A stretch of DNA of 20,783 nt from a virus, in UHGV virus genome UHGV-0270338. One strand, 5' to 3'. Under the pieces are notes generated by a model, which ran no database searches, was not told where the DNA came from, and worked only from the letters and a program-made list of their open reading frames with translations. The position numbers and the translations under genes are program-made. The first letter of the stretch is position 1; every line of letters begins with the position of its first letter. Positions 1,389-20,783 of this stretch are shown here, piece by piece.

Positions 1389-1417
1389 TGTGCTTTGAGT
1401 TAAACACTCAAAGCACA
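1389..1417 (-). terminator. Perfect 11-bp stem hairpin (tgtgctttgag / ctcaaagcaca), probable terminator in convergent intergenic region
   Basis: Inverted repeat read directly; the T-rich run is on the minus-strand side, so more likely terminates the Tfa transcript than the acyltransferase. Confidence 0.35.
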
Positions 1418-1564
1418 AAATAAAAAGCGCTGCCATTGTCTATTTTGCCCCTTCTCACGCTCGTTTTTTATTTTATAATAATACACCTCCAGTTACACTT
1501 TTGTAATTAAAAGCATGAATCATCAATTAGTTCATCCCTTAATCTAACTCTTCCCCAAACGTTC

Positions 1565-3234: not shown

Positions 3235-3237
3235 GGA

Positions 3238-4208: not shown

Positions 4209-4258
4209 CCAGTGGCGGTAACCGACCTTGCAGGGTCGATATGATGAGGAGCAGCAAA

Positions 4259-4622: not shown

Positions 4623-4687
4623 TATCGTTTTTAATTAACTGATTATTTATCTCATCACTGAATATCTTTATATAGTGAGGACTTATT

Positions 4688-5512: not shown

Positions 5513-5639
5513 TTTCATTACTGCAAATGCCCCTGCGGGGGCATTTATGGAAACGTAATTTACTCAATAATCGCCGGATGGTGAGGGATTCTTTTTACCA
5601 GAATTCAGCGCGGTGCAGCGCATATACGTGGAGAACAAA

Positions 5640-6176
5640 ATGTCATTTATTAAAACTTTTTCCGGGAAGCATTTTTATTATGACAGGATAAATAAAGACG
5701 ACATCGATATTAACGATATCGCGGTTTCCCTTTCAAATATCTGTCGCTTTGCCGGTCATCTTTCGCACTTCTACAGCGTCGCCCAACATGCGGTTCTTTG
5801 CAGCCAGCTGGTGCCGCAGGAATTTGCTTTTGAAGCGTTAATGCATGATGCAACAGAAGCGTATTGCCAGGACATTCCCGCACCACTGAAACGCCTTCTT
5901 CCTGACTATAAACAAATGGAAGAAAAAATAGACGCCGTAATCCGTGAGAAATACGGGTTACCCCCAGTTATGAGTACGCCCGTGAAATATGCCGATCTCA
6001 TCATGCTGGCAACCGAACGCCGCGATCTCGGGCTTGATGATGGCTCTTTCTGGCCTGTACTGGAAGGTATCCCGGCAACAGAGATGTTCAACGTGATTCC
6101 ACTGGCACCGGGCCATGCCTACGGGATGTTTATGGAACGCTTTAACGAGTTATCGGAGTTACGCAAATGCGCATGA
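5640..6176 (+). CDS. yfdR: YfdR-like HD-domain phosphohydrolase (5'-deoxynucleotidase family)
   Basis: Start moved to ATG 5640 (SD ggaga 5 nt upstream) giving 178 aa; HD-type motifs (HFYSVAQHA, LMHDATEAY). Confidence 0.65.
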   Translation: MSFIKTFSGKHFYYDRINKDDIDINDIAVSLSNICRFAGHLSHFYSVAQHAVLCSQLVPQEFAFEALMHDATEAYCQDIPAPLKRLLPDYKQMEEKIDAVIREKYGLPPVMSTPVKYADLIMLATERRDLGLDDGSFWPVLEGIPATEMFNVIPLAPGHAYGMFMERFNELSELRKCA

Positions 6177-6529
6177 ATGTTTTCGAAATGGAAGGGTTTC
6201 TTCGTGGGAGATGTGTACCGCGAGATCTGAAAGTAAATGAAACAGATGCTGAATACCTGGTGCGTAAATTCGATGCGCTTGAAGCTAAATGTGCAGCACA
6301 GGAAAACAAAGTAATACCAGTGTCAACTGAACTGCCACCAGCAAATGAAAGTGTTTTGTTATTCGATGCTAACGGAGAAGGCTGGCTAATTGGCTGGCGT
6401 TCTCTCTGGTACACCTGGGGACAAAAAGAAACCGGAGAATGGCAGTGGACATTTCAGGTCGGGGACCTTGAAAACGTCAATATCACTCACTGGGCAGTAA
6501 TGCCAAAAGCACCGGAGGCTGGAGCATAA
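6167..6529 (+). CDS. yfdS: YfdS-like (DUF551) prophage protein
   Basis: 120 aa; synteny after yfdR-like; start overlaps yfdR stop. Confidence 0.5.
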   Translation: MRMNVFEMEGFLRGRCVPRDLKVNETDAEYLVRKFDALEAKCAAQENKVIPVSTELPPANESVLLFDANGEGWLIGWRSLWYTWGQKETGEWQWTFQVGDLENVNITHWAVMPKAPEAGA

Positions 6530-6834
6530 TGACCACTTTTACCGACAAAGAACTGATTAAAGAAATTAAAGAGCGTATCAGCAGCCTTGACGTGCGAGAC
6601 GATATTGAGCGCCGTGCTTATGAAATCGCACTCCTATCTCTGGAAGTAGAACCAGATGAACGCGAAGCTTATGAATTATTCATGGAAAAGCGTTTCGGTG
6701 ACTTAGTAGATCGTCGGAGAGCAAAAAACGGCAATAACGAATACATGGCATGGGATATGACTCTCGGTTGGATCGTCTGGCAGCAACGAGCTGGTATCCA
6801 TTTTTCAACAATGTCACAGCAAGAGGTGAAATAA
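6529..6834 (+). CDS. yfdT: YfdT-like prophage protein
   Basis: 101 aa; synteny; overlaps neighbours by 1 nt on each side. Confidence 0.45.
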   Translation: MTTFTDKELIKEIKERISSLDVRDDIERRAYEIALLSLEVEPDEREAYELFMEKRFGDLVDRRRAKNGNNEYMAWDMTLGWIVWQQRAGIHFSTMSQQEVK

Positions 6835-7184
6835 TGGAGCCATACAGCCTCACACTCGATGAGGCCTGTCATTTTCTCAAGATATCCAGACCGACTGCCA
6901 TTAACTGGATACGCACAGGGCGTCTTCAGGCAACACGCAAAGATCCCACTAAGAATAAATCTCCTTACCTCACAACACGACAAGCCTGCATTGCGGCTCT
7001 TCAGTCTCCGCTGCATACTGTCCAGGTGAGCGCGGGTGATGGCATAACAGAGGAAAGAAAATGTCACTCTTCCGCAGAGGTGAAATATGGTACGCCAGTT
7101 TCACATTGCCGAACGGTAAAAGATTTAAACAGTCTCTTGGAACAAAGGACAAAAGGCAGGCGACAGAACTCCATGACAAGCTAA
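6834..7184 (+). CDS. xis: Excisionase (Xis), P22-type
   Basis: 116 aa from ATG 6834 (SD gaggtg upstream; TAATG overlap with yfdT stop); HTH-like [26 protein letters not shown]; 3' end overlaps int start as in lambdoid int-xis modules. Confidence 0.6.
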
Positions 7185-8224
7185 AGGCTGAAGCATGGCG
7201 GGTCAGCAAACTTGGTGAAATACCTGATATAACGTTCGAGGAAGCGTGTGTCAGGTGGCTTGAAGAGAAAGCACATAAAAAATCACTGGACGATGACAAA
7301 AGCCGGATCGGATTCTGGCTTCAACATTTCGCAGGAATGCAACTAAGAGACATTACTGAATCAAAAATTTATTCAGCAATGCAGAAAATGACGAACCGGC
7401 GTCATGAGGAAAACTGGAAACTCAGGGCAGAAGCATGCAGAAAAAAAGGGAAACCTGTTCCAGAATACACGCCAAAACCAGCGTCCGTTGCAACGAAGGC
7501 TACGCATCTTTCATTTATAAAGGCCCTACTAAGAGCCGCAGAGCGTGAATGGAAAATGCTGGATAAGGCACCAATTATTAAAGTGCCTCAACCAAAGAAT
7601 AAACGGATCCGCTGGCTGGAGCCCCATGAAGCACAAAGGCTGATTGATGAATGTCCGGAGCCATTAAAGTCTGTTGTTGAATTTGCACTGGCAACAGGCT
7701 TAAGACGCTCGAACATCATCAACCTTGAATGGCAACAAATAGATATGCAGCGCCGGGTGGCATGGATAAACCCGGAAGAGAGTAAATCAAACCGCGCAAT
7801 TGGCGTTGCGCTGAATGATACTGCATGTCGCGTATTGAAAAAACAAATCGGGAATCATCACCGTTGGGTATTTGTGTACAAGGAAAGCTGTACCAAACCA
7901 GACGGAACGAAAGCGCCAACAGTAAGGAAGATGCGGTATGACGCAAACACAGCCTGGAAAGCGGCGCTGAGACGGGCTGGTATTGATGATTTCAGATTTC
8001 ACGACTTGAGACACACCTGGGCAAGTTGGCTGGTTCAAGCCGGAGTCCCGTTGTCAGTTTTACAGGAAATGGGAGGCTGGGAGTCTATCGAAATGGTTCG
8101 TCGATATGCTCACCTTGCACCTAATCACCTTACCGAACACGCACGGCAAATAGACTCGATCCTGAATCCATCGGTCCCAAATTTGTCCCAGTCAAGAAAT
8201 AAGGAAGGTACTAATGATGTGTAA
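7061..8224 (+). CDS. int: Tyrosine integrase, P22-family-like
   Basis: 387 aa; catalytic signature ATGLRRSN (R), FHDLRHTWA (HxxR), VRRYAHL (Y); stop codon 2 nt before the tRNA-Thr-derived att repeat. Confidence 0.85.
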
Positions 8225-8343: not shown

Positions 8344-9678
8344 ATGCGTTACAATCAATTTTCACATTACAAACGCTCCGACACTTTAGCCGGGGAGTTT
8401 ATGAGATACAAGCCCAATCAATACATAATCTGTGATTCTTACGGTAACTACTATTTACGGATCACGCTGCCTGTGTATATGCAGCCCTTTTTTGAAGGAA
8501 AAAGGACGTTTGTCAGGAGTCTGCACACAAGTAATCTTCGTGTTGCACGTAGAAAGCGTGATCAGATTGCAGATGAATACCATTGCTTACGGGAGAGTGT
8601 TGCCCCTGTAAACAGCACAATAGAGAACACGCTGGAACTGTTACGCAGTAAGGCTAAATACGCCAAAACAGCTACCAGAATGCAAGATACAGCGTCTTCG
8701 TGTCCGTCATTGCTTAAAATTCTTGAAATCTACCTGACAATTAACAGCACGAAGAAGAAGCCAGCCACTTTAGCTAAGGCAAGAAAAGCGGTAGAGATGT
8801 TTCTCTCCTACCGTAAAAAGCCTGATATTGCATTGCAAGATGTAAGCCGCACCACTGTTACAGGCTGGATTGAACACATGCAAAAAACCCTTTCACAACA
8901 ATCAATTGCAAATTATATCAGCCCAATGGCCCAGCTATGGGAGTTAGCTTCATCACGTTACCACGATGCGCCAGAAAGGGCGCTCTCCCCCTGGCGAGGG
9001 CATAGGCTTGATGTGGCACAAAGTAGAGAGAGCTACGAGGCATTTTCTAACAAAGAGCTATTGCAGGTGTTGCAAGTATTTTCCGGTAATTCAGCAGAAA
9101 ACAAAGAAATGATGGCTTTGTGTCTTATCGGTGCTTATACAGGTATGCGGATCAATGAGATAGCAAGTCTCACAATAGACGATGTGAAAGAGATCGAAGG
9201 TGTGCTGTGTTTTGAAATCACACAGGGAAAAACGAAAGCTGCGGCGCGTGTTGTGCCTGTACATAGCCTTATCACTCCGTTGGTGTTGTCGCTGCGTGAA
9301 AAGCCTCATAATGGCTTTTTGTTCTATCACGCCAGCATCACAGAACGTGCTGATGGTAAACGTTCCACGTGGCACACGCAGAGATTTACAAGAGCTAAAC
9401 GAAAGGCTTTAGGGGAAAAGGGAACAGAAAGGAAAGTGTTTCATTCTCTGAGACACGGAGTAGCACAGCTTCTTGATCGAAATCAAATTCCAGAAGACAG
9501 GATCGCCCTTCTCCTGGGCCATACACGCGGCAATACAGAGACATTCCGCACATATAGCAAGAATGCAGCTTCTCCAGTAGAGCTTAAAAAATATATTGAG
9601 CTTCTACGCTACCCTGAAATAGAGAAAGGCTTATCAATCAATAAAAAATCAAATTTAAGGCGTAAAACAACGCCATAG
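8344..9678 (+). CDS. Tyrosine integrase of the second element
   Basis: 444 aa (alternative start ATG 8401 with ggggag SD gives 425 aa); motifs TGMRINEIASL (R), FHSLRHGVAQLL (HxxR), LLGHTRGN...FRTYSK (H, Y); unrelated in sequence to the upstream int. Confidence 0.8.
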   Translation: MRYNQFSHYKRSDTLAGEFMRYKPNQYIICDSYGNYYLRITLPVYMQPFFEGKRTFVRSLHTSNLRVARRKRDQIADEYHCLRESVAPVNSTIENTLELLRSKAKYAKTATRMQDTASSCPSLLKILEIYLTINSTKKKPATLAKARKAVEMFLSYRKKPDIALQDVSRTTVTGWIEHMQKTLSQQSIANYISPMAQLWELASSRYHDAPERALSPWRGHRLDVAQSRESYEAFSNKELLQVLQVFSGNSAENKEMMALCLIGAYTGMRINEIASLTIDDVKEIEGVLCFEITQGKTKAAARVVPVHSLITPLVLSLREKPHNGFLFYHASITERADGKRSTWHTQRFTRAKRKALGEKGTERKVFHSLRHGVAQLLDRNQIPEDRIALLLGHTRGNTETFRTYSKNAASPVELKKYIELLRYPEIEKGLSINKKSNLRRKTTP

Positions 9679-9686
9679 ACGCAATA

Positions 9687-9720
9687 AAGAGGCTTCAACA
9701 TAGATTGGTAGCCTCTTTTA
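9687..9720. terminator. Bidirectional hairpin terminator between int2 and the convergent minus-strand operon
   Basis: aagaggct ... agcctctt 8-bp stem followed by tttta on plus strand and preceded by aataaa. Confidence 0.45.
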
Positions 9721-9759
9721 TAATTACATCGTTACAGAGCGTTTTAGAGGCATTTACGG

Positions 9760-10473
9760 CTATTCCTGTTTAAAGGCAGGAGTAATAGTGTCTTCACCTT
9801 CACTACTTGATTTTTCAGTGTTAACACGTTTTTTCATATTAGCCCCGATGTTCTTAGATGGCTGTGTTTTGATAGCTACAGTGTTTACAGTGCCATAAGA
9901 AACGAGCCTGATCTGCTCAAAGCTAAGATCAAATACTAGGGATTCGCTTGCCTCTTCTGTGTATTCGATGCCTGTTAAAACAACGTTCTCAAAAGTTTTA
10001 TTTTCTGTAACAAGAAGAAAAGGCTGTCTACTGTCCATAATCTGATTCAGATAATCAATCGCTAATGATCTTCTGTTCCCGTTCACCCCTGCACTCTTTA
10101 ACAAGCCAGGATCGCTTTTAATCGGTGTTTCAGTGATCCTTCCTTTAAGAGAAAACTTATTGTTTTTAATTTGAACGTGATCCGATACATTAGCACCATT
10201 TTCTACGGGGTAGCTTGTAACATCTGCCGAACGTCTCACGTTCACATCGTCAACACTGTCAAAGGCCAGTGCCATATAATTTTCATAAACGTCATTACCA
10301 GAAGATGCCAGCCCACTGGTAACAATAGCAAATCCATTTTCTCCTTTTGTTTTATTGGCTTTGCTATTTTCGTTTTTTGTAGAGTTTATATCTTGTTCTG
10401 CTTTGTAAACAGCCTGAACGTGTTGTTCTGGAGTATTTGCTGCACGTATGGTTAAAATCCCGGCGGTCGCCAT
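9760..10473 (-). CDS. Hypothetical protein, last gene of the structural-like operon
   Basis: 237 aa ORF, Ser/Thr/Asn-rich; no recognisable motif. Confidence 0.45.
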   Translation of the reverse strand: MATAGILTIRAANTPEQHVQAVYKAEQDINSTKNENSKANKTKGENGFAIVTSGLASSGNDVYENYMALAFDSVDDVNVRRSADVTSYPVENGANVSDHVQIKNNKFSLKGRITETPIKSDPGLLKSAGVNGNRRSLAIDYLNQIMDSRQPFLLVTENKTFENVVLTGIEYTEEASESLVFDLSFEQIRLVSYGTVNTVAIKTQPSKNIGANMKKRVNTEKSSSEGEDTITPAFKQE

Positions 10474-10506
10474 AATAATAATTTCCTTGTAATGTTATGG
10501 CGGGAA

Positions 10507-12345
10507 TTACCCGCCGTTGGATTGTCCTGATAAGCTGGTTAATGTTAATGATTTCAAGAAGCTATCCCGACTTGCTCTCGCTGTAAAATCCACATAATCG
10601 CTTAATCTGGATGTGTCAGAATTAATAGTAAGAGGAACTTCTGTTACCACTTCAAATGTAGGATTCAGATTAAACACAGGAGATAAATTATAAGCCGGAG
10701 TTGTCATTGCAAGATTATTTAAAGCACCCTGTTTGAGATTGGTTATCGGTGCTTCGCTGACTGACATTTTTACATCTGACACAGAAGAAGCATTATCATC
10801 GAAAAGCAATCCCTTAAGAGTGTTAAAGAAAGAATGACTATTATCAGGTGTAGTTGTTGCAGTGCCAGCGCCTTTATATTGGTCAGGAACGAGCTTAGAA
10901 AGATGCTGTTTCATCCCTTCATTGCTTAATGGCGGTGCATCTCCCATATTTTTCTGAATAGCATCTGTCTTATCATCATTACGATTAAACCAGTTTACAA
11001 TCTTCATAATGGCTTCAAAAAGACTTCCTGACGCTTCTCCTAGCCTTGTAAAATACGGAGTGAGATTAGAAAGGTTTTTCATAAACTCTTCCGTTACTTT
11101 TGGATCGAGAGATTTCATAAAGCCGTCTACGAATGCTACTTGTCTTGCATCAGAAAGCTGTGAAAGCTGTCTGTTTAGTTCTCTGAATTTAACAATAGAG
11201 TCTTGCTGTGTTTCTGTTAGCCATTTTCCAGAGGCTTTTTGCTGATTAATACTTTCTTGTACATCTTTAACGGAACGTTGCCAATATTTTGACGTAAGCA
11301 TCAAATCATCGCCCAGGTCTTCTAAACGTTGTCCAATTTGGGAGTCTGAAAACCCTTTTTTCATCATTCCATTAACAGCCTTAGAAATTAATCCGGCTGG
11401 ATTATCAGCAAATTTTTTAAGGTCGCTCTTGTTAATAACACCGATGTTTAGAAGTTCATTAATAGCGTTATCACCGCCTTTCCATTCGCCGCCTTTACCA
11501 GTTTTTTTATCGACTACATATTCAGCTTCACTATAGGATTTTGCGGCACGTTCCCTAACATCTTTCATCTGATCCAGGTATTTCCTAGCCCCTTGATCAC
11601 CCATCATAGAGTCAACGCCGTTTCTATAGGCCCATTCTGTAATGTTGTACATCTGGTTAACGTCTACACCGCCAAGCCTTGCACGTTGAATTAGCTCACC
11701 TTGTGTCTCTGCGTTAGCGAAACTGTTACTAACAAACTCCGACGCTTTACTAACAGCCATCACGCCAGCAGCCGCTGTAGCGCCTCCAAATAACAGAGCA
11801 CCCATCGTGGCGGAATTCCCTGATCCTCCTCCCTTAACGGGGGCTAATTGAGCTTTTCTGTTGCCATTAATCTTACGTTGTTGCTGTTGTAGGCGTTTCA
11901 TCTGACTATTCATACGTGCAAGCGAGATAGCCCCTTGCTCATATTGTTTTGCTATCTCTCTAGCCTGTGCAATAGCTTTGTATTGTTCCGCTACAGAGAG
12001 GCGGTGCATTGCACTGATAGAGCTTGACACATCAAGGAGTTTTAATTCTGCTTTCTCTTTACGTGCTGCTATTTGTTGCTGTTGCCTTGCCTGTGCTCTT
12101 GCTGCGGCAGCTTGTGCTCTTTGATTTTGTTTTTCGGTTTTAGCTTTCTGTTGAGCAATCTTATCTACTTCACTTTGTGCTTTCTTATAGCCTTTAGTGA
12201 CATTATCAAACCTTAATTTAGCGGGCTTGATGTTTTCTGCGAATTCCTTTAAGCCTGTAATAGAGTCTTTCGCTTTTTTCAAGCTGTCTTTATCTACACT
12301 AAATGTTACTGTGTTCTTAATTTTAGAAGTGTTAATTTCTAACAT
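10507..12345 (-). CDS. Coiled-coil protein with Gly/Ala-rich hydrophobic segment (tape-measure-like or scaffold-like)
   Basis: 612 aa; N-terminal Q/A/K/R-rich helical region (AQAAAARAQARQQQQIAARKEKAELK), then GGGSGNSATMGALLFGGATAAAGVMAV; no Walker A or other catalytic motif seen. Confidence 0.5.
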   Translation of the reverse strand: MLEINTSKIKNTVTFSVDKDSLKKAKDSITGLKEFAENIKPAKLRFDNVTKGYKKAQSEVDKIAQQKAKTEKQNQRAQAAAARAQARQQQQIAARKEKAELKLLDVSSSISAMHRLSVAEQYKAIAQAREIAKQYEQGAISLARMNSQMKRLQQQQRKINGNRKAQLAPVKGGGSGNSATMGALLFGGATAAAGVMAVSKASEFVSNSFANAETQGELIQRARLGGVDVNQMYNITEWAYRNGVDSMMGDQGARKYLDQMKDVRERAAKSYSEAEYVVDKKTGKGGEWKGGDNAINELLNIGVINKSDLKKFADNPAGLISKAVNGMMKKGFSDSQIGQRLEDLGDDLMLTSKYWQRSVKDVQESINQQKASGKWLTETQQDSIVKFRELNRQLSQLSDARQVAFVDGFMKSLDPKVTEEFMKNLSNLTPYFTRLGEASGSLFEAIMKIVNWFNRNDDKTDAIQKNMGDAPPLSNEGMKQHLSKLVPDQYKGAGTATTTPDNSHSFFNTLKGLLFDDNASSVSDVKMSVSEAPITNLKQGALNNLAMTTPAYNLSPVFNLNPTFEVVTEVPLTINSDTSRLSDYVDFTARASRDSFLKSLTLTSLSGQSNGG

Positions 12346-12359
12346 TTAAAATCCCCTTA

Positions 12360-12563
12360 TTAATCATTTTTACCACCTTCTTTACTTAAGAAATGGTGTA
12401 GAGCCTGATCAATACTCTCGTTTAGTCTGAACATACGGGCTTTTACTCCTTCATATGGAACATCTAAGAGAGAACATAGATATTTCAGATTTAACAAGCC
12501 TCTTGAATCATTAGCATCTAAATGTACGTGTACACCATTTTTTGATTTCAAAATCACTTCCAT
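12360..12563 (-). CDS. Hypothetical small protein
   Basis: 67 aa; SD gaggtga upstream of ATG; directly follows an internal terminator. Confidence 0.4.
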   Translation of the reverse strand: MEVILKSKNGVHVHLDANDSRGLLNLKYLCSLLDVPYEGVKARMFRLNESIDQALHHFLSKEGGKND

Positions 12564-12587
12564 ATTTTAATCACCTCTCAAAATTTA

Positions 12588-12632
12588 AAAAATAAATAAA
12601 AAAAAGGCGAAGCGTGAATACACGCCACGCCT
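12588..12632 (-). terminator. Rho-independent terminator immediately after the capsid-like gene
   Basis: Minus-strand RNA forms aggcguggcgug-uauu-cacgcuucgccu followed by an 8-U run (plus-strand A-run 12590..12604). Confidence 0.6.
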
Positions 12633-12649
12633 CTATTACACGTTAAATA

Positions 12650-13678
12650 TTATTTAACAGTGATTTGAACGGAGAAGCCTACACCGTGGTTTACAACCAT
12701 CTGGCTATTCTCTGTAACAACGTTAACAGCATCACCACGAGAAGATTCATAGCTATAGCTGTACACCTCAGCAGGAGCGGCATTAATCAGTTCAAAGGTG
12801 CTGGAAGCAGCCCCGTAGATGTTCTGATATACATTAGAGCCTTTAGCAAACTTCGGAACCGCTACAGCGTCTGCGGTCATATGTGCAAGGTGTAGCGGAT
12901 CTACCAGTTTAATAACATCAATGTTAGTTCCTGGAATAGTGAACGCTGTCACCCCCGGTAGCAGGTCACGACGCTGGTACACAACATTTCCCTCTTCCAG
13001 TGGGCTTACATACTGGAATGCGTTTGCCATACCCGCAGAGAATCGAATTGCAGAGAAGGCTTCCGGCTTACAGAAAACAACAATACGCTCTACAGCAGCC
13101 GCCTGGCTTTGTGCTTTCTCGATAATGTCAGTAGCAATCTGATCAAATTCTTTAAAAATCTTCGTGGTGTCAGTGCTGGAGGCGTTAACAGTGGCTTTCA
13201 TAGGTGTCACATTAAACAGCTTGCCCCACTCGATAAGAACATCATCAGTTTTCGGGGTGTAGGTGCGACCACTAAACAGAGAAGCAGCCAATACGCTCTC
13301 TTTTGTACGCTGATACGCTACGTGGTGTTTAGCAACATAGTCAGCATAGATATCAGTGAGTGTTTCCTGAAAATCAGTGCCAGGCTTACGCTTGCCTTGC
13401 ACGTCCTGCGGTTTGATCAGGTCTTGCCTTAAAAAGTACGGGATTTCAATAAGATATTCTTTACCTTGTTCTCGCTTAGTAACGTTGTGTTCAGAAGAGA
13501 AACGAGAGGTTTCTTTGTTGAACAGAGATTCGTTGCTTTCGACAAGCTGGGAAACAGCTACTTTATGAGATGTAACCCCTACAGAATCCGTAAAATCAAG
13601 AGTAGAGAGCAGATAGTTTCTAGTGCTATGAGCCTGGAAAAGCGGAGCTAAATCAACGTAATCATTACCTAGAATCAT
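12650..13678 (-). CDS. Putative HK97-fold major capsid-like protein
   Basis: 342 aa; segment RIVVFCKPEAFSAI...MANAFQYVSPLEEGN resembles, from memory, the conserved region of podovirus T7 gp10-type capsid proteins; followed by a strong terminator as is typical for a major structural gene; no signal peptide. Confidence 0.45.
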   Translation of the reverse strand: MILGNDYVDLAPLFQAHSTRNYLLSTLDFTDSVGVTSHKVAVSQLVESNESLFNKETSRFSSEHNVTKREQGKEYLIEIPYFLRQDLIKPQDVQGKRKPGTDFQETLTDIYADYVAKHHVAYQRTKESVLAASLFSGRTYTPKTDDVLIEWGKLFNVTPMKATVNASSTDTTKIFKEFDQIATDIIEKAQSQAAAVERIVVFCKPEAFSAIRFSAGMANAFQYVSPLEEGNVVYQRRDLLPGVTAFTIPGTNIDVIKLVDPLHLAHMTADAVAVPKFAKGSNVYQNIYGAASSTFELINAAPAEVYSYSYESSRGDAVNVVTENSQMVVNHGVGFSVQITVK

Positions 13679-13696
13679 TTATTATTATTCCTTTTA

Positions 13697-14059
13697 TTAA
13701 GAAGTGAAAACAGAGTGGAACCCTTCAAGCTGGAAGCCTTTTTTAATTAATGCTGTTTTTGCTGCTTCACTTACAGCATTCAGCGCATCAGCTTTGATGC
13801 AGACAAGGCCAGCATTGCTACGTAGCACATCTACAGGCTTGTTGTCTCCAGCCGTTAAAAACTCACTCATAACAACATAGATATCATCTCCTGATACATA
13901 TTTAGCGCCAGTGCTGGTGATCAAGTCGCCGCATTCAACATCAGCAGGAAGAGAAGCAAAAACCTTGCTTTCTACAGAGGCAAACGGATCAGTACAATAA
14001 CTTACAATATCTGTGAAAGTCTTTCGAACTGGAAATAGAGTGTCTAAATCAATAATCAT
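13697..14059 (-). CDS. Hypothetical protein (possible head accessory, decoration or scaffold protein)
   Basis: 120 aa; immediately upstream of the capsid-like gene, start overlaps stop of preceding ORF. Confidence 0.35.
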   Translation of the reverse strand: MIIDLDTLFPVRKTFTDIVSYCTDPFASVESKVFASLPADVECGDLITSTGAKYVSGDDIYVVMSEFLTAGDNKPVDVLRSNAGLVCIKADALNAVSEAAKTALIKKGFQLEGFHSVFTS

Positions 14060-14268
14060 TTAGTAATCTCCTTAGCTTTTAATTTGATTAATTCATTAAG
14101 GGAAGGTGTAGACGGAGAAGAAGGAGAAAAATATTTTTCAACACAACGTTCCACTTCTTCGACAGAACACCCAGCGTATTTAGCTACCATTTCGGTAATT
14201 TGTGGATTGATCTTTAGCATTTCATCGCGATACTTGATGATTTGCTCTTTATCATTTAAAAACAACAT
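14056..14268 (-). CDS. Hypothetical small protein, first gene of operon B
   Basis: 70 aa; translationally coupled (ATGA overlap) with the next gene. Confidence 0.35.
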   Translation of the reverse strand: MLFLNDKEQIIKYRDEMLKINPQITEMVAKYAGCSVEEVERCVEKYFSPSSPSTPSLNELIKLKAKEITK

Positions 14269-14303
14269 TTATATAAACCTTGTTACCTTGTTTAAAGTAA
14301 GAA

Positions 14304-14323
14304 ATACAACTTTTAAGTTGTAT
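14304..14323. promoter_or_regulatory. Perfect palindrome ATACAACTT-TT-AAGTTGTAT, candidate operator at the operon B promoter
   Basis: 9-bp inverted repeat with 2-bp spacer between the upstream terminator and the first ORF of operon B. Confidence 0.4.
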
Positions 14324-14335
14324 AACGGGCAAAAT

Positions 14336-14365
14336 AAAAGGCAGCATTTAGAGCCGCCTTTTATT
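14336..14365. terminator. Bidirectional hairpin terminator separating operon A from operon B
   Basis: aaaaggcagc-atttaga-gccgcctttt, flanked by A-run and T-run. Confidence 0.5.
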
Positions 14366-14392
14366 AACTTGTACCTATGTAATTACCCTATG

Positions 14393-14420
14393 TTATGCAT
14401 ACTCCAAGATGTATGCATAA
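14393..14420. promoter_or_regulatory. Two copies of palindromic octamer TATGCATA (ttatgcatac ... gtatgcataa), candidate operator
   Basis: Inverted pair of 10-mers, each containing a self-complementary TATGCATA. Confidence 0.35.
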
Positions 14421-14611
14421 CAAAGGAAAAAAGAGGTAATAATGACACTTAAGGAGGAGGAGAAGCGGGGAGCGGAGATTTTACTCCCCTTTAACGACAA
14501 GAAGAATTTTTAATATCGAACCAATAAAGGAAAAATAATCACCCTATATAATTATATTAACATACAATAGATGAAATGTCAAGATATTTTACAACTTTTT
14601 TGTTGCTTTTT

Positions 14612-14974
14612 TTATTCTTCTGTGATAACGGCTAAGCGTTGAGCGAGTTCGATAAGGCCATCTCCCACATAGCGAACATCAGATTCAATATCTTCTATCC
14701 AGTTTGATAGCTCCCATATCTGATCGGCTGTCAGGTATGCGTTCTCACGCTTACAGAGCATCTCTACACGCTTAGAGAGGTGCTCAAAGGCATTTACAGC
14801 TAAATCCCAGTGTTTAAACGCCTCATTAAGTGCCGCTGGCGTATTTTCTTTATATGCATCAAGTTCAGCGCGGTTTAAAGGCAGGAGGTAATCATCCTCA
14901 TAATAATTAATTAGTGAGTAAATTGTATCATACGTGTTTTTGTTCATATTAAAAGTCTCCATAGTGATCATCAT
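14612..14974 (-). CDS. Hypothetical helical protein
   Basis: 120 aa ORF; likely true start at internal ATG (MNKNTYD..., ggag 9 nt upstream). Confidence 0.4.
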   Translation of the reverse strand: MMITMETFNMNKNTYDTIYSLINYYEDDYLLPLNRAELDAYKENTPAALNEAFKHWDLAVNAFEHLSKRVEMLCKRENAYLTADQIWELSNWIEDIESDVRYVGDGLIELAQRLAVITEE

Positions 14975-15356
14975 TATCTAAATGGAATTCAGGAACTAAA
15001 TTATTTAGGCCATTGGTGGCGAGATAACCAACGTAGTGGTTATAGTCTTCAAATCCTAAAATCTGGTATTTGCGTAAATCAGAGCTGTCAACGATATACT
15101 CTTTTCTTTTTCTAGGTTTCCAGAACACGCCAGGTGTTGAAGATAAGATTTCTTGTAATGCGATATATTCATCTCCACAAGGCACAGAGGGAGAATGTTC
15201 TATGATCTCTGTTTTCCATTCGCCAGGGGCGCTATTTTGCTTGGAGAGCGTAACTAGCTCTTTAAAGTCTTTGCGTCTTAGAATAGATTTAGGTTTACTT
15301 AGAAGAGAAGCTGAATCACCGATTTTCTTAACAACGTTGTTTTTTCTTTTTGCCAT
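14949..15356 (-). CDS. Hypothetical protein with basic N-terminus and acidic C-terminus
   Basis: 135 aa; MAKRKNNVVKK N-terminus; ends ...HLDNDDHYGDF. Confidence 0.4.
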   Translation of the reverse strand: MAKRKNNVVKKIGDSASLLSKPKSILRRKDFKELVTLSKQNSAPGEWKTEIIEHSPSVPCGDEYIALQEILSSTPGVFWKPRKRKEYIVDSSDLRKYQILGFEDYNHYVGYLATNGLNNLVPEFHLDNDDHYGDF

Positions 15357-15485
15357 TTATTTTTCCTTTTCTTTTAAAGGAAAACACCCCGAAGTATGTT
15401 TCTAACGTGAGAAAGAACAATAACCAATACATAGCTACTATCATAATAATGTTTTCCTTTTATATTTTAATTACATAGAGAGATT

Positions 15486-15761
15486 TTAGAGAGTGGAATA
15501 GATGAATTCTACTTTACCCAGTCTTTTGAGATTGAATGTAGAGAAAGATAATTCTTTAATCTCTATAACACCGAAATTTGATAGCTGTCTAAGCCAGAAT
15601 TTTAAACCATCTTCAGAGCAAGCTGCTCGATGTAACACATCGCTATATTTTAGCGGTGTTGGCTTTCCTTTATAGAGGTAAGCAAGTGTCTCGTAGATGC
15701 GTTTTCCTGTGTCATTACACTGAATTCTGTCTACTTGATTTTTTACTAAATATTGAATCAT
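15486..15761 (-). CDS. Hypothetical small protein
   Basis: 91 aa ORF in operon A. Confidence 0.4.
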   Translation of the reverse strand: MIQYLVKNQVDRIQCNDTGKRIYETLAYLYKGKPTPLKYSDVLHRAACSEDGLKFWLRQLSNFGVIEIKELSFSTFNLKRLGKVEFIYSTL

Positions 15762-15772
15762 AACCCTCCTTA

Positions 15773-16429
15773 TTAAAATGGAATATCAAAGTCATCATAC
15801 ACATTTGGGTAATGCTTAGAAAAATATGCCTCAATACCATTTGGTAGCTTTAACCTGTGCTTATAGGCTAACGATGTTGCAAATTCTATAAATGATGCTC
15901 CTCCTGTTCTTTTGTCTTTCTTCTGGATGATAAGAGAGGCAAAATTCTCTAACACATCCTCCTCATTATCATTAGCTACCTTTTCACTTGATGAAACAGG
16001 TGTTTCTTCCGTCTCCCACGGTAAAGGCGTATCCCAATCATCATCAAGAACATCAAAAGAAGACTCTTTATTATCTTCCGTAGGGGGAAGCTGATCAGGA
16101 ACAGCTTTAACAGTAGCTTCTTGTTGTGTCTGGGCTTCTTGTCTAGCTTCTTCTTGTGGAATATCTACCACTTGATAGACATTAGAACTTCCTGGTCGTG
16201 CATCTTTTATAATTAATCCCATTTCGAGCAATTTCTTAACCCTTTCCTCTGCTGCTCTTGGTGTTATGCCAAAAACATCGCCTATCTTAGCGTAAGAGGG
16301 AAATGCACGATCAAACCCTTTCAGATAGCAGTAAAGGTTTTTAGCACTATCTGTAAATTTATGCCCGTTTACTTGGCTTATTTTTAGAATCCACATAGGA
16401 ACTTTTACAAATTGTTCTTCATTAATCAT
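15773..16429 (-). CDS. Winged-helix DNA-binding protein with acidic linker and SSB-C-terminal-tip-like tail (candidate replication initiator / host replisome recruiter)
   Basis: 218 aa; N-terminal HTH-like segment (FPSYAKIGDVFGITPRAAEERVKKLLEMGLI); long D/E/Q-rich linker; C-terminus ...YDDFDIPF, close to the E. coli SSB tip DDDIPF. Confidence 0.55.
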   Translation of the reverse strand: MINEEQFVKVPMWILKISQVNGHKFTDSAKNLYCYLKGFDRAFPSYAKIGDVFGITPRAAEERVKKLLEMGLIIKDARPGSSNVYQVVDIPQEEARQEAQTQQEATVKAVPDQLPPTEDNKESSFDVLDDDWDTPLPWETEETPVSSSEKVANDNEEDVLENFASLIIQKKDKRTGGASFIEFATSLAYKHRLKLPNGIEAYFSKHYPNVYDDFDIPF

Positions 16430-16480
16430 TAAAAATCTCCTTATAAATCACGCTTAATGCGCTACTAAAGTGAATGAGGA

Positions 16481-16648
16481 TCACTTACCCTTTTTTTGTT
16501 TGATGTTCTCTGCTGCTTCAGTAATGATTTCTAACATCAAATCACTGACCATAATTTGCCTTTTCTTGGCTTCAGCAAATAAAACCTTGAAGATTTCAGG
16601 GTCAACGTGTAGGTAAGTGCGCGGAATTGGTTTCTTAGTTTCGCTCAT
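16481..16648 (-). CDS. Ribbon-helix-helix (RHH) DNA-binding protein
   Basis: 55 aa from ATG 16648 with excellent SD (aagaggaggag); beta-strand RTYLHV followed by two helices (PEIFKVLFAEAKKRQ, MVSDLMLEIITEA) typical of Arc/CopG/Omega fold. Confidence 0.55.
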   Translation of the reverse strand: MSETKKPIPRTYLHVDPEIFKVLFAEAKKRQIMVSDLMLEIITEAAENIKQKKGK

Positions 16649-16670
16649 AGTTTTCTCCTCCTCTTGTCTA

Positions 16671-16853
16671 TTATTCTTTCTCTGCTTCTTTCTTACGCAG
16701 TTCATCAATAATTTTCAGTGCATCGTCAAAACATTTTTCACGCTCTGGATAACCTCGACTCCTTGCCATATTACGGTTCATTACTACTTGGTGGCGTGTA
16801 AGCTCACCTTTTTTAAATGCCTGGACGACGTGCTCAGATGTAAACCATTTCAT
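16671..16853 (-). CDS. Small hypothetical protein, first gene of operon A (possible regulator or directionality factor)
   Basis: 60 aa; SD aaggag upstream; immediately upstream of the RHH gene. Confidence 0.4.
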   Translation of the reverse strand: MKWFTSEHVVQAFKKGELTRHQVVMNRNMARSRGYPEREKCFDDALKIIDELRKKEAEKE

Positions 16854-17616
16854 AAAAAACTCCTTATTCAGTTAAAAGAAATAAAACACCTTGCAAGCCT
16901 GACGGCTTCAAAGTGCATTGATTTTGATTATTTAGAGAAGAATGTTTTTCTGTCCCTCTAATACCTATTATTACATATAAAGAAACATTTGTCAATACCT
17001 TTTCATAAAAAATCTGATCTTTTTCATGCACTTACATTTTTTCTTAGCTATTCGTGCTCTTCTGTGTAGTGCTATTCTTCATTATCCGCTAAAACGCTCT
17101 AAAACGCGTTCTAACGAGATTTTGATAAAAGCAATACATTGCCTTATCTAATGGCTGTTTAGCTCGCCAGAGGCTTATTTAAGGGGCTTATTTTGTATTT
17201 GTTAGGTATATGAAAAGGTAATGGTAAATATAAAACAGAGAGTCACTTTATAAAACGCTCTGTAAAGACCTGTAGTGAGCTTATTATATGTAGGCAATGC
17301 GTTTCCATTCCCTACCCTGCTTAATGCTGTTAGAGAAGCATTTAGACCCCTTATTTTTAATTACCTAAAGTATCCTCTATACATCTCTGTTATGAAACAC
17401 CTCTGAATCCTTCATAAAACACATTATGACGCAAAGAACACTTTTCTAAGGTGATTCCCTTCCTGAACTCTGTTTCTTGCGTCAGAGAGCTACAGAGAGC
17501 TTATAAAGCTATTATTAATAATAAAGTAGATAAAGTAAGTAAGATAACTAAGATAGATAAGATTAATAAGATCAGAATTCTCTTTCGGTGTCGCCTCTGG
17601 CTTTTCCACCGAAAAC

Positions 17617-17740
17617 AATTACACGACTACAGAATGTGGAAGTGGAATTGTATTGAGGCTTAGTGAAATTACACGAGGAAAGCAGAGTGTAATTGAGCTT
17701 TAGCCGCTCTCTCTTCGAGTAATTACACAACTACAGAGAA
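17617..17740. repeat. Array of AATTACAC-containing repeats, including palindrome AATTACAC-N12-GTGTAATT (17667..17694)
   Basis: aattacacgactacaga (17617) and aattacacaactacaga (17721) are near-identical 17-mers; perfect 8-bp inverted repeat between them. Confidence 0.5.
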
Positions 17741-17995
17741 TAACGAGAGTTATTAAATGTAGGAGGGTAATTAAGAGTTAGAGAGAGTTAACACGTAAGC
17801 AATCAGTATGATTGGTTAGGTGATTACTCTTCTGCGCACAGCGCAATAGTATTTCTTCGTGGGCGTTACCGCCACGATAGTTACACGAAGAAAGTAACGC
17901 TTTGCTTTCGGTGTGAGCGGAACGGGCCAGCCAACGTAGCCCGAAAGGTAGCGGAGTAAGGCTGCTTGCCAGAGAGTGAAGCTAACGCCGGAAGG

Positions 17996-18180
17996 CAAAA
18001 GATCATATAAATAAATATATAATATTATAATTTAATAAGTAATTTAATAAATGATCTAATAGGTAACAGAATTCTGTGGGGGTGTCTAACAGAATTCTGT
18101 TAGGGTGGGGTAACAGAATTTTGTTAGGGTACAAATCTCTTTAAAAGTTAAGATTAACAGAATTCTGTGGGGGTAGCTCA
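17996..18180. promoter_or_regulatory. Origin-like region: roughly 65 bp of almost pure A/T followed by four iterons TAACAGAATT(C/T)TGTnnGGGT
   Basis: Iterons at 18064, 18087, 18111, 18155 (spacing 23, 24, 44 bp); each contains the palindrome ACAGAATTCTGT; no ORF support. Confidence 0.55.
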
Positions 18181-18224
18181 CAGTGACCTACCGTTACTAC
18201 CAATCATCACATAGCACTCACTCT

Positions 18225-18700
18225 GTGTAATGCCTTTCTATGTGTGTGCCATAATCCCCTATATTCCCTGTGTAAATCATAGAATAATGCTCTCTATTCC
18301 CTGTGTAATTCCCTACTAAAAAATCCAATGAAAAATGGCTTCAAAGTGCAATGTTAGCTTTCTTCACTTTTACATCACTTTCGCAAAGCCTTGTGTAATG
18401 CGGTTTACAGAGCACCATCAGAAATTGTTGGCTAAAAATTGTTCTGCTTGTTTCTGAACGAGTTTTCTCGTTTGTGCAAATTTTAAAATTTATTTTGTTT
18501 TTACAGCCTTATTTCGTGTAATGCGTGGCATAGCAAGCCCTTTTCTTGTGTTGTCAAGACATTTGGCAACGTTCAAACATCTGTTTAGAAATGCCAAATT
18601 GTTGATCTAACAAATAAACCTGTATAAACAGAACACCATTTAATCTATCCCCCTGTGTATCCATTAGGCATACCAAATGAATACATCTAAATCGTGTAAT
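18225..18700. repeat. Dispersed same-orientation GTGTAAT heptad motifs (about 6 copies) upstream of the serine recombinase gene
   Basis: Copies near 18225, 18269, 18302, 18392, 18517, 18694; two share the longer context tattccctgtgtaa(a)t; opposite orientation to the ATTACAC copies left of the iterons. Confidence 0.45.
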
Positions 18701-18793
18701 ATTCCGTACCCATAAGGCTTGAAACAGACCAAATGAATACGATATACTCATTTGCATTGAAGTAGTGCCAAATCGATACATTAAGAGGATTTT

Positions 18794-19333
18794 ATGAGCA
18801 ATATCGGCTATAAGCGTGTGAGCACTGTAGATCAGAACACTGATCGCCAGCTTGCAGGAGTAACGCTTGATAAAGTCTTTGAAGATAAGCTGTCAGGTAA
18901 AGACACTAACCGTCCAGGATTGCAGGCGTGTTTATCCTATCTGAGAGAAGGCGACACCTTACACGTGCACTCTCTCGACCGTTTAGGACGTAACACCTTA
19001 GACATCCTTGCTTTAGTTGAACAACTTAATAATCGAGGTGTGATTGTTCGATTTCACAAAGAAGGAATCATTGCAGACATTACAAGCGCGATGGGAAAAA
19101 TGATGCTTACTATGTTGTCGGCAGTTGCAACGTGTGAACGTGAACTGATGTTAGAGCGTAAACGAGAAGCGCAAGCCGTCAATCCTACAAAGCGTGGTAA
19201 AGGTAAAGCAGTAGATAGGGAAGGTATAAAGAAAGCCCTTTCCGCTGGCGTGTCAGTGCGTAAAACCGCCGAGAGCTTTAATGTTGCTCCTTCAACGGTG
19301 CAACGTATCAAGAAGGAAGAAGAGGAGGCGTAA
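18794..19333 (+). CDS. Small serine recombinase (resolvase/invertase family)
   Basis: 179 aa; N-terminal YKRVSTVDQNTDRQ with catalytic Ser; GKMMLTMLSAVATCERE resolvase core; C-terminal HTH (VSVRKTAESFNVAPSTVQRIKK). Confidence 0.8.
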   Translation: MSNIGYKRVSTVDQNTDRQLAGVTLDKVFEDKLSGKDTNRPGLQACLSYLREGDTLHVHSLDRLGRNTLDILALVEQLNNRGVIVRFHKEGIIADITSAMGKMMLTMLSAVATCERELMLERKREAQAVNPTKRGKGKAVDREGIKKALSAGVSVRKTAESFNVAPSTVQRIKKEEEEA

Positions 19334-19349
19334 TGCCTCCTTGATATTT
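19324..19349 (+). terminator. Hairpin terminator overlapping the recombinase stop codon
   Basis: ggaggc-gtaat-gcctcc followed by ttgatattt. Confidence 0.4.
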
Positions 19350-19660
19350 GGGGATTCTGGATTTTCCAGATCGGGGGGCGCTGATCTTCGCGTTAAACAT
19401 TGATCACGTTTGCGCCGATTTCAGATAAAAAGGCAGCTATTAAGCAATACGTAACTTTTACAATTAGTGAAATTATCTAAAACACAAGTTATATAGATGA
19501 GAAAATGAAATATTATCTTGAACAAATCAAACAAAACAACACATCATCTTGTTGACACCATGCAAAGTGAATAGTAAGCTATTATATGTGAAAATTTGCA
19601 CATTGCATGCAATAAAAAATAAATGATACCTTGTTGTTGTTAAATCAATAGGGGGTATCT

Positions 19661-19819
19661 ATGCGCTTTATCTTATCCATTTTAAAAACCTGCAGAACCA
19701 CAATTACTTTAGCTGTAATTGTTACCATCATATACCTCATCTATTTTACCCCTCGAGATAAAATCGATTCACTAGCGATCATCGTTCATGCAATGGCTAC
19801 ATTAACTAAAAAACTTTAA
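19661..19819 (+). CDS. Small hydrophobic single-TM peptide (candidate type I toxin-like or membrane peptide)
   Basis: 52 aa MRFILSILKTCRTTITLAVIVTIIYLIYFTPRDKIDSLAIIVHAMATLTKKL; SD ggggg 5 nt upstream; below the 60-aa cutoff of the ORF track. Confidence 0.4.
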   Translation: MRFILSILKTCRTTITLAVIVTIIYLIYFTPRDKIDSLAIIVHAMATLTKKL

Positions 19820-19885
19820 TAATTTCACTATCAGGCGCACAAACACATCTTTGATTGCTGGATGTGTTATGCGCCTACTGGTGAT

Positions 19886-20038
19886 TCAATCCTTAAGCCA
19901 TTTCAACTCACTAAGGAGTTTTCTTTCTTCGTTCTCTCGCTGTTTACGCTCTAGCCAGGCTTTTCCCTCTGGCGTAGACAGGAACTTACGAGCGTGAATC
20001 TTGCGGTTATTACGTTTTATAGCTGCAATGTTTTTCAT
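19886..20038 (-). CDS. Small basic protein, convergent with the hydrophobic peptide gene
   Basis: 51 aa MKNIAAIKRNNRKIHARKFLSTPEGKAWLERKQRENEERKLLSELKWLKD; SD agagg 7 nt upstream of ATG. Confidence 0.3.
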   Translation of the reverse strand: MKNIAAIKRNNRKIHARKFLSTPEGKAWLERKQRENEERKLLSELKWLKD

Positions 20039-20627
20039 CGTGTTGCCTCTGTATTCATATGAAAATTAACAAGTTACATACTACACAGGGAGACTACGCA
20101 TAAAACACAATACAAGTAAAGATACATTTTCAAGACAATAGGAGCCATAAAGCGCCTTTGATGGTTATACCAAAAAATAAGCGCCGTAGGCGTATCCACT
20201 AAAAGGGCTTTTTCACAAAAGCTATGAAGTCTTAGCAGTTCTTCTCTTATCAGGCACCCGTTGTACTCCGGTGGACGAAACCGTGCTAGAGCTTGATTCT
20301 TTCCCGATCAAGTTAGGTTTTGAAGAGGTGGGCTTTAATCCACTATTGCACTTAAAACTCTTCCCATCATTTAGCCTGTTTATCCTCTGCAACGTCTCAC
20401 GACGTGTGGCATCATTGGACACCGCGCCAGGTGTGGAACATCTTGCTAAGAGTTTTGGTAGAAGGTTTAGAGACGGTGGCACGTCTTCCAGCTTCAAAGG
20501 AACTTGTTACGAGGTTGAGCCTGGGAACTACTCGCCCATACGTGTTACACTACCAAAGCCCATAACAACGTATAGGCGTTTGTAAGTGATAACAGAAGAT
20601 ACAATTTCTTAGAGAAGTTAAGCTAAG

Positions 20628-20662
20628 TTATTGATTTTCTTGATGGTGCCGATAATAGGAGT
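20628..20662. repeat. att repeat at the intact tRNA-Thr 3' end (right boundary of the second element)
   Basis: Matches 8226..8257 apart from a 2 vs 5 nt spacer difference. Confidence 0.85.
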
Positions 20663-20719
20663 CGAACCTACGACCTTCGCATTACGAATGCGCTGCTCTA
20701 CCAACTGAGCTATATCGGC
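20644..20719 (-). tRNA. thrW: tRNA-Thr (anticodon CGU)
   Basis: Reverse complement reads GCCGATATAGCTCAGTTGGTAGAGCAGCGCATTCGTAATGCGAAGGTCGTAGGTTCGACTCCTATTATCGGCACCA: 76 nt, cloverleaf-compatible, anticodon loop CGT, encoded CCA. Confidence 0.9.
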
Positions 20720-20783
20720 CCTGAAAGGACATGTTCACGAACGTGAATCACGGTGGACAAGGTTAAAACTAACCGGGCGATGC

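Follow-up and report, generated by a model that had tools for sequence, protein, structure and literature searches.

A satellite-like island of Escherichia coli encodes a probable replication initiator with an SSB-type tip at its C-terminus

Here, we describe Rep, a protein encoded by a satellite-like island within the window, by which we mean the whole 20,783-nucleotide stretch of the virus genome UHGV-0270338 that was analyzed and that proved to be E. coli chromosome. [quoted passage not shown] Judged from sequence, this SSB C-terminal tip (SSB-Ct) of Rep probably works as a docking motif of the SSB type. With less assurance, we lean towards a model in which the origin-bound initiator would present its tip and thereby recruit SSB-binding proteins of the replisome or primosome. 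The island itself looks, from its gene content, like a phage satellite of the Stephanstirmvirinae.

The reading frame comprises 218 codons, opens with an ATG that has AAGGAG ahead of it and closes with a TAA at 15773-15775; the translation of 218 residues ends in ...HYPNVYDDFDIPF. The gene was identified from the listing of open reading frames (ORFs), from matches to families of the PHROG database and from its homologues, of which 558 were found, nearly all of them in E. coli. Within the protein, four regions were distinguished. Residues 1-92 (16154..16429, minus strand) correspond to a winged-helix DNA-binding domain, here termed variant A, which acts as an exchangeable specificity cassette. 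In the AlphaFold2 (AF2) model, residues 8-90 adopt a winged helix with a helix-helix-helix-strand-strand layout at a predicted local distance difference test score (pLDDT) of 70-86, and the Pfam family HTH_36 was matched below threshold over residues 26-73 (19.9 bits, cutoff 25), together with a weak match to HTH_24. Residues 93-155 (15965..16153, minus strand) form an acidic linker that is intrinsically disordered according to composition, model and alignment and that holds the conserved DDDWDTPLPWETEE; over its 63 residues, 18 D/E stand against 4 K/R, the net charge is -14, and the pLDDT stays below 50. A preliminary description of this DNA had proposed both an N-terminal domain resembling a helix-turn-helix and an acidic linker, and the profile matches, the charge count and the model bear out the two proposals. 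The third region, residues 156-210 (15800..15964, minus strand), is a small helical C-terminal domain that is constant across all variants of the DNA-binding domain; modelled alone, residues 156-213 gave a small four-helix domain with a mean pLDDT of 84.8. Finally, residues 211-218 (15776..15799, minus strand) make up the tip YDDFDIPF-COOH, as defined by the sequence and the homologues. The last modelled helix spans residues 208-213, the final five residues FDIPF lie outside the helices, and the final three-residue block has a mean pLDDT of 61. There is strong support for regarding the C-terminal part, in the following called the C-module, as the constant and non-DNA-binding end of Rep.

A further stretch of the linker was noted in passing. 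Around residues 118-138 (16016-16078, minus strand), the E. coli variants hardly differ in the acidic-aromatic sequence SFDVLDDDWDTPLPWETEETP, though it is predicted to be disordered; it is not kept in the two distant relatives. This stretch could be a second short docking motif.

The tip carries a terminal Phe with its carboxylate, Pro at position -2 and Ile or Leu at position -3, and in YDDFDIPF three of the five residues before IPF are Asp. It shares the final four residues, DIPF, with E. coli SSB, which ends in -DFDDDIPF (PMC10164576); at position -5, Rep has Phe instead of Asp. The earlier wording, according to which the end is almost identical to the E. coli SSB tip, was thus a fair one, given that the full motif is DFDDDIPF and that the exchange at position -5 is kept in mind. 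At 12 out of 12 independent loci, the Rep end and the TAA behind it are identical while the codons differ synonymously (CCA/CCC, ATT/ATA/CTT/TTA). Among the best 120 homologues of Rep, 116 end in [YD/YE]DFD[IL]PF, and the other four comprise a frameshifted and a truncated protein as well as two phage chimeras, so that every intact homologue among them keeps the tip. These observations exclude the possibility, raised at the outset, that a sequencing error had produced the stop codon. In more diverged relatives, [IL]PF-COOH is retained with different codons, as in DDFEIPF (53% identity) and DYFDTSLPF (33% identity), and the acidic residues before this core vary between EDFD, DDFE and DYFDTS. From composition, an end D-[IL]-P-F-COOH that has two or more acidic residues right ahead of it would be expected ~6e-7 times per protein, and among 501 ORFs taken as background (the window, flanking DNA of E. 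coli and a phage of 150 kb) no end like that of Rep was seen. The Rep tip is not a product of chance.

With regards to the family to which the C-module belongs, an exhaustive HMMER search returned 9 matches among 1.84 billion representatives, and a profile search for further relatives gave fragments only. The C-module was not found in phages: a tblastn search against 50,697 phage records had no match even at E <= 1. Reading the tip as a motif for binding the beta clamp was also considered. Such motifs follow a QL[SD]LF-like consensus, and the Rep tip has neither a Gln nor any pattern of this kind; this reading was rejected.

How an SSB tip is bound is well described. In the pockets of the partner proteins, the terminal Phe is buried, its carboxylate rests on a basic lip and the Asp residues lie along a basic ridge, and deletion of the Phe or the exchange P176S abolishes or greatly weakens binding (PMC10164576). 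In the complexes with RecO and ExoI, only Pro176, Phe177 and, weakly, Ile175 were ordered, the Asp residues contributing collectively (PMC3152348). Rep has the partner-contacting residues in common with bacterial SSBs, namely an I-P-F core at the extreme C-terminus with the free carboxylate of Phe and a cluster of acidic residues upstream. The proteins that carry the tip are different, Rep being a winged-helix protein for duplex DNA. Since it has no match to the Pfam SSB family (PF00436) and is modelled as a winged helix and a helical bundle with no oligonucleotide-binding (OB) fold, Rep is not an SSB.

The exact Rep ending also occurs elsewhere. When 2.9 million viral contigs were scanned for DFDIPF with a stop codon behind it, 27 places were returned, which comprise 11 satellite initiators, about 9 SSB-like proteins, 2 fusions of primase and DnaB helicase (L039:906-2786, minus strand; L040:9944-12361, plus strand), 1 initiator of the Rep_trans family (L045:1077-2249, minus strand), 3 other proteins and 1 obvious chance match. 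Two of the DFDIPF-ended proteins were confirmed as PF00436 SSBs, one ending in ...NDFDIPF (L021) and the other in ...DDDFDIPF (L023); a third protein resembles E. coli SSB and ends in ...PPMDFDDDFDIPF (L029), this one being called an SSB by its appearance. For the canonical DDDIPF and stop, at least 120 places were found in the viral contigs, and the matches listed include SSBs, helicases of superfamily 2 (SF2; ResIII/DEAD), an ERF annealase and a TIR protein of the CAP12/Pycsar type. With one tip or the other, many phage proteins that are not SSBs are carriers, among them a Pam3_Gp34-like protein; the IMG/VR contigs L126, L087, L134, L067 and L077 hold such carriers. DFDIPF is a natural variant of the SSB tip that recurs on other replication proteins, which supports the claim of an SSB-Ct-type motif made in the preliminary description. 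The spread over SSBs, primase-helicases, a Rep_trans initiator, SF2 helicases and an annealase suggests that the tip is a portable docking motif of replication and recombination proteins.

The very probable role of Rep as an initiator rests on three kinds of evidence: family matches, the presence of iterons beside an AT-rich stretch and, decisively, the covariation of the DNA-binding domain with these iterons. The best family matches of Rep are the replication-initiator profiles of PHROG, with E-values from 4e-11 to 1e-3, among them phrog_270 (3.8e-11) and the O-like phrog_391 (2.4e-8). No curated initiator family of Pfam (Phage_rep_O, Rep_3, RepA_N) was reached above threshold, the only Pfam hit for these purposes being the sub-threshold HTH_36, and no match was obtained in NCBIfam or in a sequence search of the PDB. 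A Foldseek search with the whole model returned generic winged helices of the MarR/ArsR type; the N-terminal domain of pSK41 RepA (4pql, 4pt7) appeared among them at an E-value of only ~0.1, and there was no Pfam RepA_N match.

The presumed binding sites of Rep are four iterons of the sequence TAACAGAATTCTGT with the palindromic core ACAGAATTCTGT, which were located with a repeat finder at 18064..18183 and start at 18064, 18087, 18111 and 18155. These iterons had been given before as 18064..18174; they are real, and they adjoin a stretch of about 60 bp of almost pure A+T (17998..18060), which from its sequence is the presumed DNA-unwinding element. The AT-rich stretch has the same place in all variants, between the iterons and a conserved block TTTTGCCTTCCGGCG. 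Rep homologues are nearly identical over the C-terminal ~110 residues, but their N-terminal winged helices fall into five or more different types, and each type of domain goes with its own type of repeat: variant A with TAACAGAATTCTGT, variant B with TACCCCTATCAA, variant C with TAGKTCACTGTGARCTAGGGGG, variant D with GTAACGAnAnGTTACA and variant E with TAGGAARTGRKTTCC. This pairing was found without exception at all loci examined, and the repeats adjoin the AT-rich block each time. In a distant satellite from a metagenome (L016), the C-module is 33% identical, the N-terminal domain is A-like, and GGTAACAGwwyTCTGT occurs five times. Recognition of the cognate iterons by the N-terminal domain is strongly supported, if indirectly, by this covariation, and the earlier suggestion of a sequence-specific DNA binder at the origin has gained considerably from the five pairs.

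Some origins were found to be mosaic. Origins of variant C (L007:6040-6500 and L009) still hold three B-type repeats as well as D-type repeats upstream of the C-type set, and the origin in the window (18155-18200) retains one C-type unit, GGTCACTGTGAGCTACCCCC, beside the A-type set. On the far side of the AT-rich element, a G+C-rich block (17810-17997) adjoins it, the other strand of which begins with TTTTGCCTTCCGGCGTTAGC; at least the first ~70 bases of this block are conserved in all origin variants. The block had no Rfam match, and a Rfam search of 16400-20783 gave the tRNA only. A structured RNA, a packaging site or a part of the origin are possible candidates for this block.

With respect to the machinery that would act at this origin, no helicase, primase, polymerase or loader was recognized among the island products with Pfam, PHROGs and NCBIfam, so that the initiator must bring a foreign replisome. 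In the proposed mechanism, the exchangeable winged-helix domain would bind its four cognate iterons beside the AT-rich unwinding element, and the iteron-bound initiator would open or mark this element. The C-module, tethered by the 63-residue acidic linker, would then display several SSB-type tips at the origin, where proteins with SSB-Ct pockets could become concentrated, assemble a replisome and start replication. On the host side, PriA, PriC, DnaG and the Pol III subunit chi would be candidate partners, while replication proteins of a Stephanstirmvirinae helper would be equally possible.

Several points weigh against this recruitment model and need to be set beside it. Full function of E. 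coli SSB takes 11-20 linker residues between fold and tip (PMC10164576). Whereas the SSB tip stands at the end of a long disordered linker, the Rep tip follows a helical domain by about five residues; according to the AF2 prediction, on which this comparison depends, FDIPF alone is free and the disordered linker lies upstream of the C-terminal domain. The tip may thus be less accessible, or the C-terminal domain may be part of the interface. The Phe in place of Asp at position -5 is a second point. Furthermore, the C-module family is narrow and amounts to essentially one satellite lineage, so that the conservation of the tip rests on three diverged clusters. Finally, we infer the helper relationship from homology only.

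The likely helpers themselves make use of SSB tips. Phages of the Stephanstirmvirinae have genes of their own for a polymerase of family A, for a helicase like UvrD and for an SSB, and the SSB of phage ESCO5 (L018:301-1188) ends in PPMDFDDDIPF and thus carries the E. coli tip. In the SSBs of Mt1B1_P17 (L014:5862-6794) and JohannJBalmer (L019:301-1248), DFDDDIPF is internal and followed by 15 more residues, APIGLQYGRNFLHCF; a tip in this position would be without the free carboxylate that is normally held by the partner pockets. An interface or a competition with host ExoI has been proposed for an SSB-like protein of phage Bas52 (BASEL collection), which bears FDDDIPF (bioRxiv 10.64898/2026.04.29.721553). 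When the likely helpers infect, the SSB-Ct hub is therefore in use. As a helper SSB bears the E. coli tip, the tip of Rep could address proteins of the host or of the phage, and its partner may come from the helper phage rather than from the host.

A docking motif of this kind could also serve as a decoy. By competing with SSB, the tip would sequester SSB-binding proteins, either to slow the replication of the helper as a form of interference or to keep enzymes of the kind of ExoI, RecJ and RecQ (nucleases, helicases) off the replicating satellite DNA. All arguments drawn from the motif apply here in the same way as for recruitment. In addition, satellites of lytic phages do depress helper replication, as described for PLE (elements that resemble phage-inducible chromosomal islands) and ICP1 (PMC7145576), and the competition with ExoI proposed for the tipped SSB-like phage protein offers a parallel (bioRxiv 10.64898/2026.04.29.721553). 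However, titration needs a high copy number, and an initiator that acts on a handful of iterons is better suited to local recruitment. The tip also sits on the sole replication-related protein of an element that has no means of loading a replisome. We regard the decoy role as unlikely, noting that it and recruitment are not mutually exclusive.

Another explanation needs no partner in trans. The acidic aromatic end could fold onto the basic DNA-binding domain of Rep itself or mediate oligomerization, for which the SSB-Ct with the OB fold and the tail of T7 gp2.5 with its own DNA-binding groove provide parallels. The distribution of charge would suit this, as the N-terminal domain has a net charge of +3 and the remainder of the protein is strongly acidic, and so would the position of the tip directly behind a folded helical domain. 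Yet exchanges of the N-terminal domain, of which five or more variants occur that look unrelated, leave the tip unchanged, and genuine SSBs as well as helicase-primases end in the same hexapeptide, which points to a shared external receptor. An internal or structural role accordingly appears improbable to us, to about the same degree as the decoy.

That Rep is instead a transcriptional repressor or activator, with the repeats as its operators and a C-terminal motif unrelated to replication, is very unlikely: RefSeq names such as 'transcriptional regulator' and 'helix-turn-helix domain-containing protein', the generic MarR/ArsR-type fold matches and the fact that palindromic repeats can be operators would agree with it, but the repeats lie 1.6 kb from the rep gene and abut the AT-rich block, the best profile matches are initiator families, domain and repeats are swapped with a constant C-terminus just as in the RepA/ori replicons of PLE (PMC8263062), and the island has no other candidate initiator.

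The recruitment model can be placed beside several known systems, of which RepA of PLE, a satellite of Vibrio cholerae, together with Odn of the Vibrio phage ICP1 is the nearest. The RepA/ori modules of PLE were experimentally shown to be replicons in which the N-terminal domain and the iterons are swapped and the C-terminus is conserved, and phage ICP1 uses a RepA-like domain in Odn to cut the origin of its satellite (PMC8263062). How PLE RepA and the RepA_N family recruit the replisome has been stated to be unknown (PMC7145576). Like PLE RepA, Rep would be a helicase-less initiator in a satellite of a large lytic phage, and it shows the modular exchange of domain and iterons; unlike it, Rep has no detectable membership in RepA_N by sequence, and its C-terminus offers an explicit candidate motif for docking. 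No SSB tip has been reported for PLE RepA in the PLE literature that we covered.

Initiators of the lambda O type and other iteron-binding initiators resemble Rep in that a winged helix binds repeats beside an AT-rich region, the handover to the replisome being left to the opposite end of the protein; Rep differs from the lambda O, Rep_3 and RepA_N families in staying below the curated thresholds. Lambda O recruits the complex of lambda P and DnaB through its C-terminal domain, and TrfA of plasmid RK2 is an initiator with a short linear motif that binds the beta clamp, which makes it a precedent for a replisome-docking motif. An SSB-Ct is not known from either lambda O or TrfA. A different precedent is found in phage T7, where the helicase-primase gp4 has an acidic tail that ends in Phe like that of the cognate SSB, gp2.5, so that the two proteins dock at a single site on the polymerase. 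Here, a replication protein other than an SSB bears a tail of the SSB kind, as do the DDFDIPF-ended primase-helicases that we found in viral contigs; in contrast to the Rep tip, the T7 tails are longer and without the I-P-F core, and their carrier is a helicase, not an origin-binding protein. Work on the T7 tails is cited in PMC10359462. A literature search for initiators that are not SSBs and carry an SSB tip found nothing specific. In Rep, a known docking motif occurs in a new carrier and would serve a new role.

For the assignment of the island, its make-up was compared with that of phage satellites. The island of about 12 kb (8344..20719), delimited by Pfam matches, tRNA search and gene order, contains a tyrosine integrase (8344-9678, plus strand), genes for a Dit-like baseplate protein (9760-10473, minus strand) and a 612-residue protein (10507-12345, minus strand), a capsid-E-like gene (12650-13678, minus strand), a resolvase (18794-19333, plus strand) and, at its edge, a tRNA-Thr(CGT) (20644-20719, minus strand). 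From the resolvase onwards come 1.7 kb of non-coding DNA, two small ORFs, rep, five small ORFs and the capsid-E-like gene, and then an ORF of 67 residues, the ~610-residue protein, the Dit-like protein and the integrase. The gene 3' of rep starts only 12 bases downstream, which places rep in an operon of small genes; an ORF of 55 residues directly upstream (16481..16648, minus strand), annotated in the locus L001, belongs to the same operon. The gene order recurs at other chromosomal sites, some of them beside tRNA genes, with different integrases, and further islands of this family were seen at L004-L012, L016 and L017.

Thus, an integrase island at a tRNA site is present that is without recognized replication enzymes and most virion genes and has a few homologues of structural proteins of a helper. 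In tblastn comparisons with Mt1B1_P17, a virulent myovirus of the Stephanstirmvirinae, the Dit-like protein was 56%, the 612-residue tail-region protein 26% and the capsid protein 22% identical, and the phage counterpart of the 612-residue protein adjoins the phage Dit gene. The lack of replication enzymes in combination with phage-like structural genes is the make-up of a phage satellite, for which phages related to phAPEC8 and phi92 would be the helpers; indirect evidence for such a dependence comes from the genes and the nearly identical DNA segments that the island has in common with Stephanstirmvirinae phages. A region of 4 kb around rep has matches in 723 of the 5426 complete E. coli genomes (~13%), nearly always in the chromosome, and in 286 of the 723 at least 80% of its length is covered. 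In the searchable literature, no description of this island or of satellites of the Stephanstirmvirinae was found, and it appears to represent an undescribed family of E. coli satellites.

Several phages of the Stephanstirmvirinae encode proteins that combine satellite-type domains with a different C-terminus. These chimeras of 328-332 residues consist of two satellite-type winged helices in tandem and a C-terminal MUG113/T5orf172 domain, and were found in Mt1B1_P17 (QNJ49226; L003:1871-2857, minus strand), muut (muut_154; L002:2371-3369, minus strand) and inny (MN850601, region 120157-120549). Both MUG113 and T5orf172 are members of the GIY-YIG superfamily. As their first winged helix, the proteins have variant A in Mt1B1_P17 and BI-EHEC (95.6% amino acid identity), variant B in muut and variant D in inny (95.4%), and the second winged helix matches the N-terminal domain of satellite variant E (L027). 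For the nuclease-like domain of the muut protein, MUG113 was matched at 22.5 bits (cutoff 22.3), and the 'endonuclease' family phrog_681 at 2e-18. Variant C was not found in the phage collection; among the three variants looked up, it has the most database blocks.

Probable traces of recombination between phage and satellite are visible in the DNA. The junction lies in the Rep linker at ...LPPTE|, and the DNA of muut and inny is 98-99% identical to the window at 16427-16659, which covers the 55-residue ORF (megablast), and at 16076-16160, which codes for part of the linker. The DNA-binding cassettes of these two phages differ from that of the window, and the identical segments flank the cassette like homology arms; flanks of this identity would allow the exchange of cassettes between phage and satellite by recombination. 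The phage proteins with the satellite DNA-binding domain have neither the C-module nor the tip, which argues that the tip is tied to replication rather than to the binding of DNA. A homology between the C-module and the C-terminus of the chimeras, hinted at by a MAFFT alignment, was rejected, as BLASTP gave nothing significant.

The genome of Mt1B1_P17 lacks exact 12-mers of the iteron; a single near-match stands by itself, and clusters of this sequence that resemble iterons were not found. The shared DNA-binding domain therefore gives no indication of a replication origin shared with the phage, and the lack of cognate iterons favors an Odn-like reading of the chimeras. By analogy, they look like the coliphage counterpart of ICP1 Odn and would be putative nucleases. 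Both are phage chimeras that join a satellite DNA-binding domain to a T5orf172-type nuclease domain, and they differ in that the coliphage proteins carry two satellite-type domains in tandem.

The results on Rep, its origin and the chimeras can be combined into a wider picture, which we offer only tentatively. An initiator without enzymes of its own would nucleate a replisome from host or helper machinery by means of an SSB tip placed on duplex DNA. Around this origin, a three-way arms race might be fought, in which phages would take up cassettes into nucleases with tandem domains that are directed against the origin of the satellite, and satellites would evade them through a joint exchange of cassette and iterons. 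SSB-Ct tips would then be a portable signal that is used on initiators, primase-helicases, SF2 helicases and annealases.

If the recruitment model is true, the Rep sequence may answer how initiators of satellites or plasmids that have neither helicase nor primase get a replisome onto their origin, and the satellite could use whichever replication machinery, of host or helper, is built around the SSB-Ct hub. The motif in question is a well-understood docking motif of eight residues at the end of an initiator, in E. coli, where every SSB partner has been cloned; for the tip of Rep, changes at single residues (removal of the terminal Phe, Pro to Ser) lead to clear predictions. A satellite family present in ~13% of complete E. 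coli genomes, with a counter-measure in phages that mirrors ICP1 Odn, bears on the generality of arms races between satellites and phages. It is also relevant to phage therapy, as phAPEC8- and phi92-like phages are used in cocktails.

Among the neighbors of rep, the ORF of 135 residues (14949..15356, minus strand) had been singled out for a second acidic end with a terminal Phe; we see in it a resemblance to the tail of T7 gp2.5, which is acidic and ends in Phe as well. The ending ...NDDHYGDF is real and is kept in close E. coli elements (DNADHYGDF, DNADYGDF), but the homologue in the divergent satellite L016 ends in ...DICLDILGE. As it is not conserved in the divergent relative, the hint from ...GDF is weak, and ...HYGDF was rejected as a second tip.

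Positions 1-8224 of the window are unrelated to the satellite. They hold an acyltransferase, tail remnants of a Mu/P2-like prophage (tail-fibre assembly, Mu gp48-like and a fragment of baseplate J), a DUF2303 gene and a second tyrosine integrase (7061-8224). The latter adjoins the satellite integrase (8344-9678), which suggests tandem islands at thrW.

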